The notes under the pieces were generated by a model that was not told where the DNA came from, searched no databases, and saw only the letters and a program-made list of their open reading frames with translations. Shown here piece by piece: positions 1,289 to 11,273 of a stretch of 64,000 nucleotides of DNA (position 1 is the stretch's first letter; every line of letters begins with the position of its first letter). The stretch is from a phage, in NCBI GenBank assembly GCA_017686895.1, contig GCA_017686895.1_4521.1. The stretch is one strand, 5' to 3'. Position numbers and translations under genes: made by a program.

Positions 1289-1365
<77 letters not shown>

Positions 1366-4474: not shown

Positions 4475-4496
4475 CCACCAATTGAAAGGTAATAAT

Positions 4497-5090
4497 ATGA
4501 ACACACTGAAGAAACTTGTTGAATTCATCCGCACTAAACTGGGTACTGCTATGGCTAAAAATCTGACTGTCGAAGAACAGTATAACGCAGCCGCAGATAA
4601 GTTGATTACCCAAATCAAAGAACTAAAAACGGCTTCTGTTAAATCTATTAATGAAGAAAAACGTATTCGCGAACTTGTTAATGAAAAGAACAAGCAAGCC
4701 GCTTCTAAGGAACGTGAAATTCGTAAGCTCCTGGCTGAAGGACAAGATGTTACCATGCATGCTAAGCTTGGTCTTCTGTATCGTCGAACTGCCGAACAAC
4801 TTAATACAAAAGCTGACGGTTATGCCGCTATGCGAATTGAAATTGCTCGTAAGGTGGTTGAACTTGATGATGCTCGTCAGAATCTGGCAATCAAACTCGA
4901 ATACATTCGTGAAACTCGAGCAGCCAATGCCCTTGGTATCTCTACGGCTGATGATGTGATTGAAATTGCTGCACTGACTAAGGTTGATATCGAAGACACT
5001 CTGACTCGTGTTGAAACGTTCAATGGCACTCCAGCCGGTGTCGAAACCACTTCTGCTGATGTACAAGAATATATTAACTCTTTGAAATAA
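4497..5090 (+). CDS. hypothetical coiled-coil protein
   Basis: ATG at 4497 within track ORF 4482..5090; heptad-rich, charged sequence. Confidence 0.5.
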
Positions 5091-5098
5091 AATAATAC

Positions 5099-5120
5099 GG
5101 AGGACTCCGGTCCTCCTTTT
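5099..5120 (+). terminator. intrinsic terminator
   Basis: GGAGGAC-TCCG-GTCCTCC then TTTT. Confidence 0.65.
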
Positions 5121-5139
5121 GGATAATAAAGGAGTTAAC

Positions 5140-5736
5140 ATGCGAAACCAAAATAATGATATTGACTCAATGTTCGAAGAGTTCCGAGATAAGGTAAATC
5201 CACCTACGTCTTTAGTTGATTCATTACGATATGTTGCAACCGGACGTAAATGGTACTGGTCATCTTCTTATGAGACAACTGAATATGCAAATAACCGAAA
5301 ATCTTTATTAGCCCCAGGTATCATGATTAATGATATCGGAGCTATTGCTAAACTAGTTGCAGACCATGATATTAGATTCACTGATTTCGTTGCTCCTACG
5401 TGGTCTGTTTGTTGTTTAAACACTGAATGGGAATATATCAGCGAACGCTCTGAAGATTATTATGGTTTTAGAGATAAGCTTCTGAGGTCTAATATGTTTT
5501 ATATCGATACAGAAGTTCTAGTCGATAATAAAAAATACTACTTTACGTTAATCGTCGATTCTGAAACTATGTATGAAGGCAAGCCTTTGCTTAAGAGAGT
5601 TGATGCTTTAAGTGCTATTGATGCGCTTTATGAAACTATGGTTGTTAGTCCTAATTTCACTAACAATTTAATCCTTGAGCAATTTATTATGGAATGTAGA
5701 GAATATGTCAAAGCCAACCCTATACATGCCAAGTAA
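5140..5736 (+). CDS. hypothetical protein with EQFIMECRE motif near C-terminus
   Basis: ATG at 5140 after AAAGGAG RBS; C-terminal region carries the ExF(I/V)xECR tail shared with four downstream genes. Confidence 0.5.
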   Translation: MRNQNNDIDSMFEEFRDKVNPPTSLVDSLRYVATGRKWYWSSSYETTEYANNRKSLLAPGIMINDIGAIAKLVADHDIRFTDFVAPTWSVCCLNTEWEYISERSEDYYGFRDKLLRSNMFYIDTEVLVDNKKYYFTLIVDSETMYEGKPLLKRVDALSAIDALYETMVVSPNFTNNLILEQFIMECREYVKANPIHAK

Positions 5737-6100
5737 GCCCTGGGCGTATGAATACAAGCGTAAATTAATCCCAAATGAAGTACTATTTGGCCCTATTTTA
5801 GCTTTAGCATTTTTAATCTTTATGATTATAGGAGCCGTTTTAGATTCTAGTGAAGTTATATCGTCTGATGCAGCATTTTCATTAATGTTCGTCGCACCAC
5901 TTATTGTACCGTTTTTATTAATGCCTATTAACTGGATGGGATATTGGTACCAAGGACGTCATCACAGGGCCCGATTAAGAGAATGGAAAGTTCAGTGCGC
6001 AAAAGCCCAAGCTCAGTATGATGAAGCTGTTAAAAAGTATGAATATGAAGAAGCTATGGAATTCGTTAAGGAAATAAGATGCAAAAGCCTTAACTCTTAA
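5705..6100 (+). CDS. small membrane protein with EFVKEIRCK tail
   Basis: Two predicted TM helices (LFGPILALAFLIFMIIGAVL, FSLMFVAPLIVPFLLMPINW); start chosen at ATG 5705 (track start 5675 is TTG). Confidence 0.4.
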   Translation: MSKPTLYMPSKPWAYEYKRKLIPNEVLFGPILALAFLIFMIIGAVLDSSEVISSDAAFSLMFVAPLIVPFLLMPINWMGYWYQGRHHRARLREWKVQCAKAQAQYDEAVKKYEYEEAMEFVKEIRCKSLNS

Positions 6101-6141
6101 CCGTATGGCCTTCTCTTGGTGAGAACATTCTAATTTTTATT

Positions 6142-6438
6142 ATGAGTATTGGCATGGGATTTGCCTTTGGATTAGTTGGATTTATTATTGACGGCGTTGT
6201 GTTAGGATTTATAGGGAACACTGGTGGATTCACAGATCAATGGCAGGACTTACGGTATACCCAAGCCTTTGCATCCATCGCATCATTTTGTACTGTAGTC
6301 TATTTTTACTACAATTTTATAAACCATAACAAGAAAAATAAAAAAGTTTACGCTTCTCAAATGATTAGTTATAATGAACTCCTAGCTAGACGTGAAAATG
6401 AAACAATCGAAAACTTTATTAAGGAATGTAGAAAATGA
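6142..6438 (+). CDS. small membrane protein with ENFIKECRK tail
   Basis: Hydrophobic N-terminal half; ends ENFIKECRK. Confidence 0.5.
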   Translation: MSIGMGFAFGLVGFIIDGVVLGFIGNTGGFTDQWQDLRYTQAFASIASFCTVVYFYYNFINHNKKNKKVYASQMISYNELLARRENETIENFIKECRK

Positions 6439-6740
6439 GTAAGATTATTGAAATTAAAGTACCAGAGTTTAATGATGCCAAATCCGCTTCAGATGCAATT
6501 TATAAACTTCTGAATCAAGCTGAACGTATCGAAGAAGAAGCTACAAAGATTGCAGACCAATATGCAGTATCGTTTTCTGTAGGTGATTATGGTAGCGGTC
6601 GTACTTATTATCCTAAGGGTGAAATCGTATCCCAGTGGATGAAAGATGAAATTGAAAATAATGGCGGCGATGTTAAGCGTGAAGGTAATGGATACGTTAT
6701 TACTGAAGGTGCTTGGGTTTCATCTTCTGCGTTGTGCTAA
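6435..6740 (+). CDS. small protein, WVSSS-C tail family member 1
   Basis: Ends GAWVSSSALC; ATGA overlap with upstream gene. Confidence 0.5.
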   Translation: MSKIIEIKVPEFNDAKSASDAIYKLLNQAERIEEEATKIADQYAVSFSVGDYGSGRTYYPKGEIVSQWMKDEIENNGGDVKREGNGYVITEGAWVSSSALC

Positions 6741-6749
6741 GGAATCATT

Positions 6750-7022
6750 ATGTCTAAAGAACAAACCGAACTGGCTGAAGCTGTAGCAAAAATCTATGCA
6801 GTTATTGAGGCTGCCAAAGAAATTGCTGATAAACAAAACACAACATTCGACTTGTATCCAGCTTATGGTATGGGTGGAACGTATTATTCTCCTGGATTCT
6901 TGAAAAAAGAACTTGAGCATTATACCGAACAAGGCAATCCGAATTGGGCCACTGTCAACCAACACTCATATTACACCAGCCTCGAATCAGGTGGTTGGGT
7001 TGCATCTTCTATGGAATGCTAA
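6750..7022 (+). CDS. small protein, WVSSS-C tail family member 2
   Basis: Ends GGWVASSMEC; preceded by TAAGGAATCATTATG junction. Confidence 0.5.
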   Translation: MSKEQTELAEAVAKIYAVIEAAKEIADKQNTTFDLYPAYGMGGTYYSPGFLKKELEHYTEQGNPNWATVNQHSYYTSLESGGWVASSMEC

Positions 7023-7031
7023 GGAAATCAT

Positions 7032-7229
7032 ATGTCTCGTGAATTAGATTGTGCTGTACGTACGGCAGTAGCTGCTCTGGAAAACCTGTTCCAAATTGCA
7101 ACAGAAGAACGCGAAGAAGTTACATTATGGATTGAAGATAACGCAGGTCTGAATCTCCAGGACGCGATCTCATTATCCCACAATAGTATCACTGTTCAAG
7201 GCTGGGTATCATCTAGTTATTCTTGCTAA
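7032..7229 (+). CDS. small protein, WVSSS-C tail family member 3
   Basis: Ends QGWVSSSYSC; preceded by TAAGGAAATCATATG junction. Confidence 0.5.
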   Translation: MSRELDCAVRTAVAALENLFQIATEEREEVTLWIEDNAGLNLQDAISLSHNSITVQGWVSSSYSC

Positions 7230-7233
7230 AACA

Positions 7234-7263
7234 GTTTACAACAAGATAGGGCTATGTTATAGT
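7234..7263 (+). promoter_or_regulatory. early promoter inside a palindrome (approximate coordinates)
   Basis: GTTTAC, 18 bp spacer, TGTTATAGT; -10 flanked by ATAGGGCTA / TAGTCCTAT inverted repeat. Confidence 0.55.
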
Positions 7264-7291
7264 AGTCCTATCAAATTAAATGGAGACAACA

Positions 7292-7532
7292 ATGGTTTAT
7301 TACGAAAGTATCGGAACCGAAGTAGTTGCTAAAACTATTACTCGTGAAAAGTTTGCAAAGATATTCGATATGCGTTATAAAAAAATCTGAACACAAAGGC
7401 ATCCGATTCGAAGATGCGCACTGTACAATTTGCCCTTATAATGAAGACATAAACGGCACAATCGTTCCATTGGTAGAGGCTTCACATGACGACCTCTGGG
7501 ATGAATATAATATCGCATGTCGCGAAATTTAA
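7292..7532 (+). pseudogene. small Cys/His-containing protein gene interrupted by a frameshift at an A7 tract
   Basis: ATG 7292 with good RBS reads 31 codons into A7 run (7379..7385) then stops at 7388..7390; the +1 frame continues as track ORF 7326..7532 (SEHKGIRFEDAHCTICPYNEDINGT...). Confidence 0.4.
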
Positions 7533-7557
7533 GTAATCTAAATTCGAGGAAAATATT

Positions 7558-8514
7558 ATGATGTTAGTTATTGGTTCTCGTGCACTTCACTATCACGGTC
7601 TTATTGATTCTAGCGCTATCAAAAATAGTGATTGGGACTTTATTGCGGACCAATGTTCTTGGAATGCATTCAAAAATCAAATGATGGGTGTATATGTTCA
7701 CCAAGATAACCCTGGTGTCCAAGTTTTCAAATGTTTCCATAATGGACGCGAAACTCATTTTGAAGCATACATCGTTCCGGCTATCACTAACGTTCGCGAA
7801 CTAGTCGGTGAACTCACTCCTGAAGATTTCACGTCTTCTTATGACCTTTTAAAATACGCCAAGAAAAATTTGACTAAAGACCGTTTGAACGGGTTTTACT
7901 GGGCAACTCCTGAGATATGTCTTGCAATTAAGATGTCTCATCGTTTCAAGAAAAATAATCCATTCTTTTTAAAGACTATGAACCATATTCAGTATCTTCG
8001 TGGTAAAGGTGTTACACTGGACGATGAACTTACTGAAATTATGCTGAAACGCCAGAAAGAAACCTTGAACTATGCTCACCCAGTTCTTGACACTTCTAAA
8101 AGCGCATTCTTTAAAGATGACATCTATACGTATGACCATGATACTATTCACGAAGCCATTGCACTAACAGACCGTCCAGCGTATACATTTTATATGAAAG
8201 ATGGTTCTGAAGTCATGACCTCACGCGAGAAGTTCGAATCATTACCAGAAATGGTCAAATTAGCCGGCGTATACGAAGAATCATGTGTACTAGCGTTAGA
8301 ACGTTCTCAGATTCCTAATAACTTTGAAATCCATCCACGTGATAGTTTTATGATGGCATTAGAAAAAGTCTGTACTTCAATCACGTCAGGCTGGTTCCGT
8401 GAATACGCTTGGGAAAACTACAGCAAAGTTGTAAGTATGTACCAAAGCTTAGGACATGACGATTATGTAAAACGTTTTAAACAAAATTTCCATATGGTAA
8501 AACCTTTCAAATAA
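7558..8514 (+). CDS. hypothetical protein
   Basis: 318-aa ORF, ATG-ATG start after GAGGAAAA RBS; N-terminal IGSRALHYHG...DWDF weakly resembles a nucleotidyltransferase motif. Confidence 0.55.
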   Translation: MMLVIGSRALHYHGLIDSSAIKNSDWDFIADQCSWNAFKNQMMGVYVHQDNPGVQVFKCFHNGRETHFEAYIVPAITNVRELVGELTPEDFTSSYDLLKYAKKNLTKDRLNGFYWATPEICLAIKMSHRFKKNNPFFLKTMNHIQYLRGKGVTLDDELTEIMLKRQKETLNYAHPVLDTSKSAFFKDDIYTYDHDTIHEAIALTDRPAYTFYMKDGSEVMTSREKFESLPEMVKLAGVYEESCVLALERSQIPNNFEIHPRDSFMMALEKVCTSITSGWFREYAWENYSKVVSMYQSLGHDDYVKRFKQNFHMVKPFK

Positions 8515-8526
8515 TTTCGCAAAACT

Positions 8527-8556
8527 GTTTACACAATTATAGGACTATGTTATAGT
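8527..8556 (+). promoter_or_regulatory. early promoter inside a palindrome (approximate coordinates)
   Basis: GTTTAC, 18 bp, TGTTATAGT; flanked by ATAGGACTA / TAGTCCTAT. Confidence 0.55.
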
Positions 8557-8584
8557 AGTCCTATTAAAACATGAGGAGAATATT

Positions 8585-8890
8585 ATGAAATTAGGCGAAA
8601 CCAACCGAATTGGTCTTTTAACTATATTTGTATCACTTTTTTACGTAGCTCTTTCTGTTGCAGTATTACAAAAGGCTTACGATATGGATGGTGTTCCTGG
8701 TTTTGTATTCTTATCACCATTTTTATTATTCGTCGGGGCTTTGTTATTATATGCCACGACTAGTTTTGACCATAACGTCTGGGTTAATTATAAATGTAAA
8801 TTGTCTGAAGAAGAACACGCAGAAGCTCGTAAAAAAGCTATTGAATCTACCAATCTAGAAAATTTCATTAAAGAATGTCGAGGAAAATAA
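8585..8890 (+). CDS. small membrane protein with ENFIKECRGK tail
   Basis: Two hydrophobic segments; C-terminal LENFIKECRGK. Confidence 0.5.
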   Translation: MKLGETNRIGLLTIFVSLFYVALSVAVLQKAYDMDGVPGFVFLSPFLLFVGALLLYATTSFDHNVWVNYKCKLSEEEHAEARKKAIESTNLENFIKECRGK

Positions 8891-8891
8891 T

Positions 8892-9578
8892 ATGAATAGT
8901 TCTAAAGTGTTTAATAGTCAAGCTCGTGCAGTAGGTGGTTTTGCTCATAACGTACAAAATGACCAAATCAAAAATGAACCAATGTTCTTTAACTGTGATT
9001 TGAGTTTTGCTTGGGATAACGGCGGTCCTATTACTCGTAGCTTTATTGCCAATCTCCCAATTGATTGGACTAATCAACATGTTGTATTTGATTCTCGGGT
9101 TCATATGCTGATGCCTGGTTGGTATCCTGCTATTCCTGGATATCACCATGACGATGTTCCTCGCCCTGATATTCCAGTCGGCCAACACTTTATTACTGCA
9201 GGACAACCTGACTATGATAACCCTCGTTACCATTCTGAACATATTCTTGGTCTTGTTAACGCTGACGTGTGTCCTACTCATTTTGCAACAGGAACTGCAG
9301 AGTTCAGTCAGATTCCTGATGGCGAACTTATCTATCGCCAATGGCACAAAGAAGTCCTCGAAAAAATTGAAAAAGGTGAACTAGAGAAATGGGAAGCTCC
9401 AGACCGTACTCTTCTTCAGTTTGATTGGCAAACATGGCACACTGGTTCTCGTGCAATTAGTAATGGATGGCGTTGGTTCGGACGTGTATCTCGTAATACA
9501 GACCGAGTTAAAAAGATTACCAATGAAATTCGTGTCAATGCCCAAGTTTATCTGGAATTCCCTATGGAAGGCTGGTAA
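8892..9578 (+). CDS. putative Fe(II)/2-oxoglutarate-dependent oxygenase-like protein
   Basis: Candidate HxD (GYHHDD), distal His (WHTG) and RxS (RVS) in the spacing typical of the 2OG oxygenase fold; motif-level only. Confidence 0.4.
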   Translation: MNSSKVFNSQARAVGGFAHNVQNDQIKNEPMFFNCDLSFAWDNGGPITRSFIANLPIDWTNQHVVFDSRVHMLMPGWYPAIPGYHHDDVPRPDIPVGQHFITAGQPDYDNPRYHSEHILGLVNADVCPTHFATGTAEFSQIPDGELIYRQWHKEVLEKIEKGELEKWEAPDRTLLQFDWQTWHTGSRAISNGWRWFGRVSRNTDRVKKITNEIRVNAQVYLEFPMEGW

Positions 9579-10069
9579 TGATTAACAAAATATATTGGTC
9601 TAATATTGACGACGGCAATGAAGGTATTTCATACTATTCAGTAGATTGGACAGGATGTCCATCCTACTTAGTGAAACGTATTTGTCAAGAATTTAAAATC
9701 GACCAGCCAGCAGGTATTATCGTGAACAGATACATTAATGGATATCAACCTATCGATGAAGTAATACGAACAACTCAAGCTGATCTTGAAAAGTTTTTCA
9801 ATAAGTGTCAATGGATAACAGGATGGATTATATTTGTACCGTCGGTATGGTTTTTTAGTACTAAAGTAAGTGCCTTTGCCATACCAGATATTATCGCTAT
9901 CTTATTAGCATCTACTATCGTAAGTATTATTGGTGGTATTATTGGTGGAGGTACTATAGGCATCATTATTAATCTTGTTAAAAGTAGTTTACAGGAACGT
10001 AAAGACAAGATAAAGGCCAAGAATAATGAAGTTGAACGTTTTATTACCGAATGCAGGAATTTGAGATGA
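9578..10069 (+). CDS. membrane protein with ERFITECRNLR tail
   Basis: TAATG overlap start; Gly/Ile-rich TM segments; conserved tail. Confidence 0.5.
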   Translation: MINKIYWSNIDDGNEGISYYSVDWTGCPSYLVKRICQEFKIDQPAGIIVNRYINGYQPIDEVIRTTQADLEKFFNKCQWITGWIIFVPSVWFFSTKVSAFAIPDIIAILLASTIVSIIGGIIGGGTIGIIINLVKSSLQERKDKIKAKNNEVERFITECRNLR

Positions 10070-10302
10070 GTATAGCAATTTACATTAAATCAGAATCATG
10101 TGATAGTTATCTGTACACATATGATAAAGATGTGTCAGAAGAAAAAATCAAAGACGATCTTAATATGGACCTTGATTTGTTCAGTCCTATTGCAGATTAC
10201 AAACTTGCTGTCTCTAATAGTGAAAGTCCATCTAAAGAAACGCGTATTGAAGAATTTATGTCCGAATTAATGGCCAAATCATGGGACCGAGATGATGAGT
10301 AA
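10066..10302 (+). CDS. hypothetical acidic protein
   Basis: ATG 10066 overlapping upstream stop (ATGA). Confidence 0.45.
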   Translation: MSIAIYIKSESCDSYLYTYDKDVSEEKIKDDLNMDLDLFSPIADYKLAVSNSESPSKETRIEEFMSELMAKSWDRDDE

Positions 10303-10750
10303 GAAAAATAAAGTGAAAGAACTATCAGCCGGTATTATCTTCATGACAAAAGATAAAGAATTATTCATGGGTCGTGTAACTGGTTCTCGTCCTAAAGGTG
10401 CATTAGCTCATCGGTGGGATATTCCTAAAGGCCGTGTCGAACCTGGCGAATCTCCTATCGAAGCCGCTATTCGTGAATGCGAAGAAGAAACTGGGTTTAC
10501 ACAATATGACCCTGCCTTCCTGAAAGACCTAGGTGAACATCATTACTCAGACAATAAGAATATTCATCTGTTCCTATATACCATCCCTGTAGAGCACGAG
10601 CAATTCAGAAACAGTGTTTGTAATTCATATCATACATTCCCGGACGGACGACAGATTCCTGAATTTGATGCATTCGCTCTAATTAAACCTTCTCAATGGG
10701 AATATGTAATGGGCAAATCGTTATATAAGGTGCTCACTACCCTCCTATAA
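10292..10750 (+). CDS. nudE: Nudix hydrolase
   Basis: Nudix box GRVEPGESPIEAAIRECEEETGF; sits immediately upstream of lysozyme e. Confidence 0.85.
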   Translation: MMSKKNKVKELSAGIIFMTKDKELFMGRVTGSRPKGALAHRWDIPKGRVEPGESPIEAAIRECEEETGFTQYDPAFLKDLGEHHYSDNKNIHLFLYTIPVEHEQFRNSVCNSYHTFPDGRQIPEFDAFALIKPSQWEYVMGKSLYKVLTTLL

Positions 10751-10784
10751 GTAATAAATACCTCCTATAAACGTGGGAGGTATT

Positions 10785-11273
10785 ATGAATATATTTGAAA
10801 TGCTTCGTAATGACGAAGGTCTTAGACTGACTTTATACAAAGACACTGAAGGCTTTTGGACGATTGGTATAGGCCATTTAGTAACAAAGAACCCGTCTTT
10901 AGCCGTAGCTAAAGCTGAACTTGACAGAATGATCGGTCGTAAATGCAACGGTACAATTACCCTTGATGAGGCTGAAAAGCTATTTAATGAAGACGTTGAT
11001 AAAGCCGTTCGCGGAATCTTGGGTAATGCTAAACTTAAACCGGTATATGATTCTTTAGATGCGGTTCGTCGATGTGCATTGGTCAATATGGTCTTCCAAA
11101 TGGGTGTAGCAGGCGTTGCTGGTTTTACTAATTCTCTTCGTATGCTTCAACAGAAACGTTGGGATGAAGCGGCAGTAAATCTAGCTCAATCTAAATGGTA
11201 TCGTCAGACACCTAATCGCGCGAAACGCGTAATCTCAACATTTAAAACAGGAACTTGGAAAGCGTATATATGA
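10785..11273 (+). CDS. e: lysozyme (endolysin)
   Basis: [31 protein letters not shown]... nearly colinear with T4 lysozyme as I recall it; start at ATG 10785 after GGGAGG RBS. Confidence 0.95.

Follow-up and report, generated by a model that had tools for sequence, protein, structure and literature searches.

The open reading frame at positions 8892–9578 on the plus strand of the window (the whole 64,000-nucleotide stretch of phage DNA analysed here) begins with ATG, ends with TAA, and encodes a protein of 228 aa; it is a genuine gene of a T4-like coliphage. Over bases 7500–10800, the window shares 99.4% identity with Escherichia phages CCU7 and TH12 and 95–99% with many Tequatrovirus records. 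A Shine-Dalgarno sequence, GAGG, can be read at 8880–8883 (+), 8 nt 5′ of the start codon. The stop codon of the preceding gene (8888–8890) lies 1 nt from the ATG, and the TAA overlaps the ATG of the following gene (TAATG at 9576–9580), so that the gene is part of a densely packed run of genes that share its strand. A candidate promoter of the T4 early type (TTTACA and a TG-extended TATAGT, 17 nt apart) is found by consensus match at 8528–8556 (+) and resembles the T4 early-promoter consensus. It would drive a 101-aa membrane protein, the 228-aa protein, and a 163-aa membrane protein. Promoter-like sites are mildly enriched, with 33 found as compared to 21.9±4.8 expected from shuffles. Because the promoter is a consensus match only, early expression is a point that we infer from it, and the gene is probably transcribed early. 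The window holds two identical promoter-like sites of this composition, one at 7235–7263 (+), upstream of an ORF cluster at 7280/7326, and the one at 8528–8556, upstream of the gene for the 101-aa membrane protein.

The gene lies within a block of ∼3.1 kb (6435–9578) that is missing from T4 between e.3 and e.2/nudE. T4 e.6, e.5, e.4, and e.3 have their counterparts in window ORFs at 4482–6438; our initial expectation that the 228-aa protein was T4 e.6 was ruled out, since the T4 e-region contains no homologue of it. The block that T4 is without also includes three tandem paralogous small ORFs at 6435–6740, 6750–7022, and 7032–7229 (+; 101, 90, and 65 aa), which have in common a YGxGxTYY motif and a C-terminal G-W-V-S/A-S-S-x-x-C. 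Further downstream, at 7558–8514 (+), is a gene for a 318-aa protein with DUF7277 (E = 1e-26) and DUF7275 (E = 4e-79) domains, which the T4 e-region likewise does not carry. The 101-aa membrane-protein gene (8585–8890) alone separates this DUF7275 gene from the 228-aa gene, and the pairing of the two occurs in many T4-like phages, not in distant clades. Small predicted membrane proteins are encoded at 6142–6438, 8585–8890, and 9578–10069 (+), all with the C-terminal motif E-(N/R)-F-I-(K/T)-E-C-R and all matching phrog_2203 or phrog_9798, and they form a paralogous family on both sides of the gene; the 163-aa member has an N-terminus similar to T4 e.2, and the 98-aa member is similar to T4 e.3. 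Coupling of the 228-aa protein to these flanking membrane proteins was considered and rejected, as it is conserved only in close relatives. The only tRNA genes found in the 64-kb window, tRNA-Met(CAT) at 1209–1282 and tRNA-Arg(TCT) at 1289–1365 (+), lie ∼7.5 kb upstream of the gene; the annotated T4 stretch has eight.

Our alignment A2 contains 90 sequences, the window protein and 89 relatives at 32–82% identity. The original prediction had picked out an HxD…H…RxS arrangement in the motifs GYHHDD, WHTG, and RVS, and the three are present as described: G83-Y-H85-H86-D87-D88 (codons H85 to D88 at 9144–9155), W182-H183-T-G (H183 codon at 9438–9440), and R198-V-S200 (codons at 9483–9491). Seven of the 228 positions are invariant in A2, namely G83, H85, D87, H183, R194, R198, and W228. 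H85, D87, H183, R194, and R198 are thus each found in 90/90 sequences, as compared to 45/90 with His at position 86 and 70/90 with Asp at position 88, and therefore H85 and D87, not H86 and D88, are the predicted metal ligands. R194 is a second invariant arginine, 11 residues past H183, and R198 lies 15 residues past it. Position 200 carries Ser in 57 sequences and Thr in 31 (88/90 together), F196 is kept in 87/90, and the R-x-S of the original prediction holds across the family as R-x-S/T. Also conserved, in 81 or more of the 90 sequences, are D67, R69, H71, R91, Q105, P106, H117, T129, F131, N211, R214, Y220, and G227.

The probability that H85, D87, H183, and R198 should all be among 7 invariant positions of 228 is ∼3e-7 (7×6×5×4/(228×227×226×225)), and, judging from the alignment, the motif arrangement goes well past anything that chance would give. 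Short H-x-D, H, and R-x-S patterns are nonetheless common by chance, and the evidence for the original prediction had been graded weak by its own author, so a chance motif in a spurious or nonenzymatic ORF has to be weighed. This explanation is refuted by the 1292 homologues conserved over their full length (E≤1e-3 in a large protein collection), by the invariance of the motif residues, by a confident fold prediction and structural matches (see below), and the ribosome-binding site and tight operon packing also speak against it; we regard its probability as negligible.

The fold itself was the point on which the original prediction was to be checked, a double-stranded beta-helix (DSBH) being expected. 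An AlphaFold2 model built with A2 as input (mean pLDDT of 95.3, pTM of 0.91) is a DSBH, and its Foldseek matches in the PDB are mostly of the PhyH type. The model contains the core of eight strands that characterizes the superfamily: strand I (residues 65–73), an irregular strand II (about residues 78–85), strand III (116–122), strand IV (129–138), strand V (165–168), strand VI (173–178), strand VII (182–185), and strand VIII (192–201), with a helix (147–160) between strands IV and V. In DSBH oxygenases, the iron triad and the residue that binds the C5 carboxylate of 2-oxoglutarate (2OG) stand at canonical strand positions, H-x-D following strand II, the distal His within strand VII, and a basic residue on strand VIII some 9–15 residues past the distal His. 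The (near-)invariant motif residues of the 228-aa protein occupy these same positions in the model, and the 2OG-oxygenase reading is thereby borne out at the level of fold and residue placement. H85-x-D87 (9144–9152, +), which lies within a family motif P-x-I-P-G-W/Y-H-x-D at the end of strand II, is predicted to provide the first two ligands of a 2-His-1-carboxylate triad, and H183 (9438–9440, +), on strand VII, is the predicted distal His. The segment R194-W-F-G-R198-V-S200 (9471–9491, +) on strand VIII, with its arginines at +11 and +15, is the predicted clamp for the 2OG C5 carboxylate; R194, F196, R198, and S200 alternate along the modeled strand and hence would face the same side.

Strands II and III are separated by a family-specific insert (residues 86–116; 9147–9239, +), recognized from conservation, gaps, and the model, where residues 86–115 form a loop with a short helix (100–103) at a pLDDT of 84–87. 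R91, Q105, P106, and H117 in this region are each kept in 85–89 of the 90 sequences, and residues 97–101 are an additional insertion present only in the T4-like clade. We consider this insert a probable substrate lid.

Comparison with known structures places PhyH-type Fe(II)/2OG oxygenases (PF05721 clan) as the nearest structural neighbors of the 228-aa protein, with solved examples in EasH (4nao), the ectoine hydroxylase EctD (4nmi), proline hydroxylase H11 (7dzz), ColD (8xpf), EvdO2 (4xac), HygX (4zpi), and GriE (5nci). A Foldseek search of the PDB returned HygX, GriE, EvdO2, H11, and EctD, at E-values of just about 1e-3 and TM of 0.3–0.4; among viral models, the proteins that match well come from phages and giant viruses and are uncharacterised, and below them stand weak matches to PhyH and other 2OG oxygenases. 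Fold comparison scores are 8.2 for ColD and TlxI, 8.1 for EvdO2 and ThoJ, 7.9 for the viral prolyl hydroxylase vCPH, 7.8 for PHD, 7.1 for ALKBH3, 7.0 for ALKBH5, and 6.3 for AlkB, so that, as far as the model can tell, the nearest folds are small-molecule oxygenases, by a small margin only. The spacing of 11 residues between H183 and R194 is also that of PhyH, EctD, and TauD, and the 15 residues from H183 to R198-x-S200 equal the distance from H243 to R258-x-S260 in DAOCS. An R-x-S on strand VIII is common to the 228-aa protein and the RxS-type oxygenases (IPNS/DAOCS/flavonoid, PF03171). The prolyl 4-hydroxylase/PHD group, including vCPH of PBCV-1 (5c5t), differs in that the 228-aa protein has no PF13640 match, and no substrate link to this group was found; in collagen P4H, the 2OG-binding residue is a Lys located 10 residues past the His.

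Sequence models do not place the protein in any established enzyme family. Pfam, NCBIfam, and PADLOC gave no match for the 228-aa protein; the PhyH HMM (PF05721) gave none at E≤1, nor at its gathering threshold; and the HMMs of PF03171, PF13640, PF13532 (AlkB-like), and PF13759 did not match the window protein either. Thus the protein is not filed in PF05721, although PhyH enzymes are its nearest structural neighbors. When the 90 relatives were scanned singly, one reached PhyH at E = 0.068 and three weakly matched the cupin domain AraC_binding (E = 0.003). PF13759 (2OG-FeII_Oxy_5) appeared below its cut-off, at E = 0.007, in the degenerate second domain of a duplicated relative (P0264). Sequence and profile searches of the PDB yielded no significant match. 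Matches to IPP isomerase (E = 0.13–0.9) and YhbH (E = 0.34) were judged to be due to chance, and BesD (6nie), at a nonsignificant E of 0.85, was the sole PDB profile match to align functional motifs, over the distal His and the following Arg (f-H-R-g-x-P…g-w-R-w-F in the family, l-H-R-T-I-P…T-R-I-I in BesD; in general f-H-R-x-x-P…R-x-F/I-x). The BesD, PhyH, and 2OG-FeII_Oxy_5 matches may be taken as weak, convergent hints of a 2OG oxygenase. BesD-type amino-acid halogenases/hydroxylases differ from the family in one respect, as a Gly replaces the carboxylate ligand in BesD whereas D87 is invariant here; an Fe/2OG halogenase of the SyrB2/BesD type (H-x-A/G) is therefore ruled out for the PHROG 1843 protein.

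The failure of 2OG-oxygenase sequence models to recognize the protein, together with the AraC_binding matches of three family members and the presence of the cupins YjgK and DUF4867 among the Foldseek matches, could instead indicate a DSBH/cupin fold that lacks 2OG-dependent oxygenase activity, such as a metal-binding protein, an isomerase/epimerase, a 2OG-independent oxidase of the IPNS/ACCO type, or a noncatalytic binder or inhibitor. Loss of the triad need not abolish the fold, as several relatives show: P0135, P0169, P0224, P0256, and P0264 are tandem duplications in which the first copy retains H-x-D…H…R and the second, dead copy is without H-x-D. However, the signature is never lost from the N-terminal copy of such duplicated proteins, and across the 90 sequences H-x-D…H is conserved together with the Arg and Ser/Thr signature of strand VIII; so complete a signature is hard to explain without 2OG chemistry, and we consider a DSBH protein lacking such chemistry very improbable. 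The evidence from sequence and model argues that the 228-aa protein is very probably an active Fe(II)/2OG-dependent oxygenase of the phage-specific PHROG 1843 family. The tandem relatives amount to a built-in active/inactive pair and for this reason hint that the single-domain proteins may work as dimers; the TlxI-TlxJ heterodimer is a known active/inactive pair in the superfamily with which the duplicated relatives can be compared. Otherwise, the relatives provided no informative domain fusions, the longer ones being tandem duplications or proteins with unannotated N-terminal extensions.

Membership in PHROG 1843 (phrog_1843, “unknown function”) extends over the full length of the protein, with residues 1–228 aligned to positions 1–222 of the 222-position profile at E = 9.6e-98. 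An exhaustive profile search returned at least 738 clusters at 50% identity, 127 of them with E≤1e-30. Among phage genomes, 473 records carry the gene. Its T4-like carriers infect Escherichia, Shigella, Klebsiella, Citrobacter, Enterobacter, Serratia, Edwardsiella, and Aeromonas and include RB69 (RB69ORF132c); a 50-kb Stenotrophomonas phage (H52) has a copy at 70% identity, and relatives at ∼30% identity are found in phages of Mycobacterium, Gordonia, Bacillus, Cronobacter, Pectobacterium, Erwinia, and Yersinia. A survey of bacteria and archaea, with one genome for each of 185,579 species, gave 23 loci only. Several of these adjoin phage-type replication genes or are short contigs and so resemble DNA of prophages or phages; the idea that bacterial chromosomes carry homologues in a metabolic setting was accordingly rejected. 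Given 473 phage records against 23 loci in 185,579 species, the family is essentially phage-borne. Decayed copies also exist: Escherichia phage a20 (H63) keeps just residues 166–228, in Aeromonas phage 65 the gene is split into pieces of 143 and 86 aa, and Aeromonas phages 44RR2.8t.2 and L9-6 have 73-aa fragments that correspond to phrog_23363. Because T4 does without the gene and some phages hold decayed copies, the oxygenase is dispensable.

A search of the accessible literature found nothing on the PHROG 1843 family and no experiment on any member. The database labels of the relatives are mostly “hypothetical protein,” but some Aeromonas-phage copies are named “Phytanoyl-CoA dioxygenase family protein” in UniRef, and the orthologue carries the label “2OG-Fe(II) oxygenase” in one Klebsiella phage record. 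The call at the level of the fold has therefore already been made by automated pipelines.

To examine genomic context, we collected 109 loci, in which the protein falls into 22 clades, and clustered all ORFs within 6 kb on each side. No partner gene is conserved across the 22 clades in these flanks, and no neighbor is common to more than 4 of them, from which the enzyme appears to act alone and not in a multistep pathway. The recurrent neighbors are generic phage genes, encoding HNH endonuclease, primase/helicase, dCMP deaminase, macro domain, NAMPT, ThyX, and MazG proteins. The oxygenase is the best-conserved protein of its neighborhood at the loci compared (L003, L014, L017, L018, L021, and L023). 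It is 82% identical to the Aeromonas-phage copies, as compared to 45% for the DUF7275 protein, and in Klebsiella and Citrobacter phages (L003, L014, L021, and L023) its identity is 78–83%, as compared to 59–63% for NudE and 68–76% for lysozyme. By these sequence comparisons, the gene is under unusually strong purifying selection; high conservation, taken with the 70% identical Stenotrophomonas copy, points to strong constraint, horizontal transfer, or both.

Full-length conservation so far above that of the neighbors would be expected of a protein in contact with a conserved macromolecule, and the several (near-)invariant arginines would suit such a partner. The main alternative thus keeps the chemistry proposed above and changes only the substrate: the enzyme could modify a macromolecule, either as a hydroxylase of a universal host protein such as a translation factor or ribosomal protein (as do PPHD and YcfD/RoxA) or as an AlkB-like demethylase or modifier of DNA, RNA, or tRNA, in the service of host takeover or repair. 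AlkB/ALKBH demethylases and the phage TET/JBP-like dioxygenases, which act on nucleic acids, have both superfamily and chemistry in common with the 228-aa protein. In Mycobacterium phage PegLeg (L002, 168–5681) an RtcB-like RNA ligase, a MazG gene, and a tRNA cluster precede the homologue, the ligase lying just upstream of it, and in Gordonia phage Lozinak (L006, 2327–4666) the homologue again comes directly after an RtcB-like RNA ligase; in the two phages RtcB and a tRNA cluster are found 1–4 kb upstream of the homologue. This proximity, and the tRNA genes ∼7.5 kb upstream in the window, would favor this alternative. However, tRNAs are near the gene in only 9 of 42 diverse loci and RtcB neighbors are confined to actinophage clades, and a general link to tRNA or RNA repair was rejected on the former count. 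The best structural matches are moreover PhyH-type small-molecule enzymes, the protein has no extra nucleic-acid-binding domain, and the spacings from H183 to the two arginines are 11 and 15, as compared to 17 and 23 from the distal His in AlkB. On balance, a macromolecule-modifying oxygenase is a serious possibility, to which we give somewhat less than an even chance. Some of the enzymes of the AlkB and TET/JBP-like groups are encoded by viruses or phages, phage TET being an instance (PMC8256090).

Returning to our preferred reading of the 228-aa protein as an active, phage-specific Fe(II)/2OG oxygenase, its mechanism can be proposed by analogy with the superfamily. The sequence and model establish that the gene is real, what fold it encodes, and how its ligand residues are conserved and placed; metal and 2OG binding, catalysis, early expression, and the class of substrate are inferred. 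Fe(II) would be held by H85, D87, and H183 inside the double-stranded beta-helix, and 2OG would chelate the iron, while S200 and one or both of R194 and R198, on strand VIII, would grip the C5 carboxylate of 2OG; of the two arginines, one may contact 2OG while an acidic group of the substrate is bound by the other. Splitting of O2 would release succinate and CO2 and form an Fe(IV) = O species, which would hydroxylate or otherwise oxidize a C-H bond of a substrate held beneath the family-specific lid (86–116) and the N-terminal region. The enzyme would stand alone, with no dedicated partner gene, and is dispensable to the phage.

With regard to the substrate, the likeliest candidate in our view is a negatively charged molecule that is ubiquitous and occurs in bacteria of very different kinds. 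Its occurrence in very different bacteria is suggested by the conservation of the protein, its spread into unrelated phages, and its relatives in phages of Gram-positive hosts, and an anionic character is suggested by the extra conserved arginines R69, R91, and R214, each kept in 84–89 of the 90 sequences. A free metabolite or a nucleotide-type small molecule is a tentative choice that falls short of even odds; a nucleic acid seems doubtful, and a conserved host protein more doubtful still.

Fe(II)/2OG oxygenases are known for DNA/RNA demethylation, protein hydroxylation, and metabolite tailoring, and the known phage examples, the TET/JBP-like enzymes, underlie DNA hypermodification. Our result is a solid annotation at the level of the fold and brings no surprise. 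The class of enzyme is an ordinary one for phages, and nothing in the present evidence implies an unusual mechanism. A further, unlikely reading is that this phage-specific oxygenase alters a universal host molecule as a device of takeover or counter-defense. It might, for example, oxidatively inactivate a nucleotide-derived immune signal or metabolite, or hydroxylate a conserved component of translation or RNA repair. Such an activity would explain the conservation of the protein above its neighbors, its spread in unrelated phages of Proteobacteria, Actinobacteria, and Firmicutes, and why no partner gene is needed, and, if true, would constitute a new biological role of 2OG oxygenases in phage infection. 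Identification of the substrate would provide an annotation for more than a thousand “hypothetical proteins” and could reveal an oxygen- and 2OG-dependent step in the interaction between phage and host.
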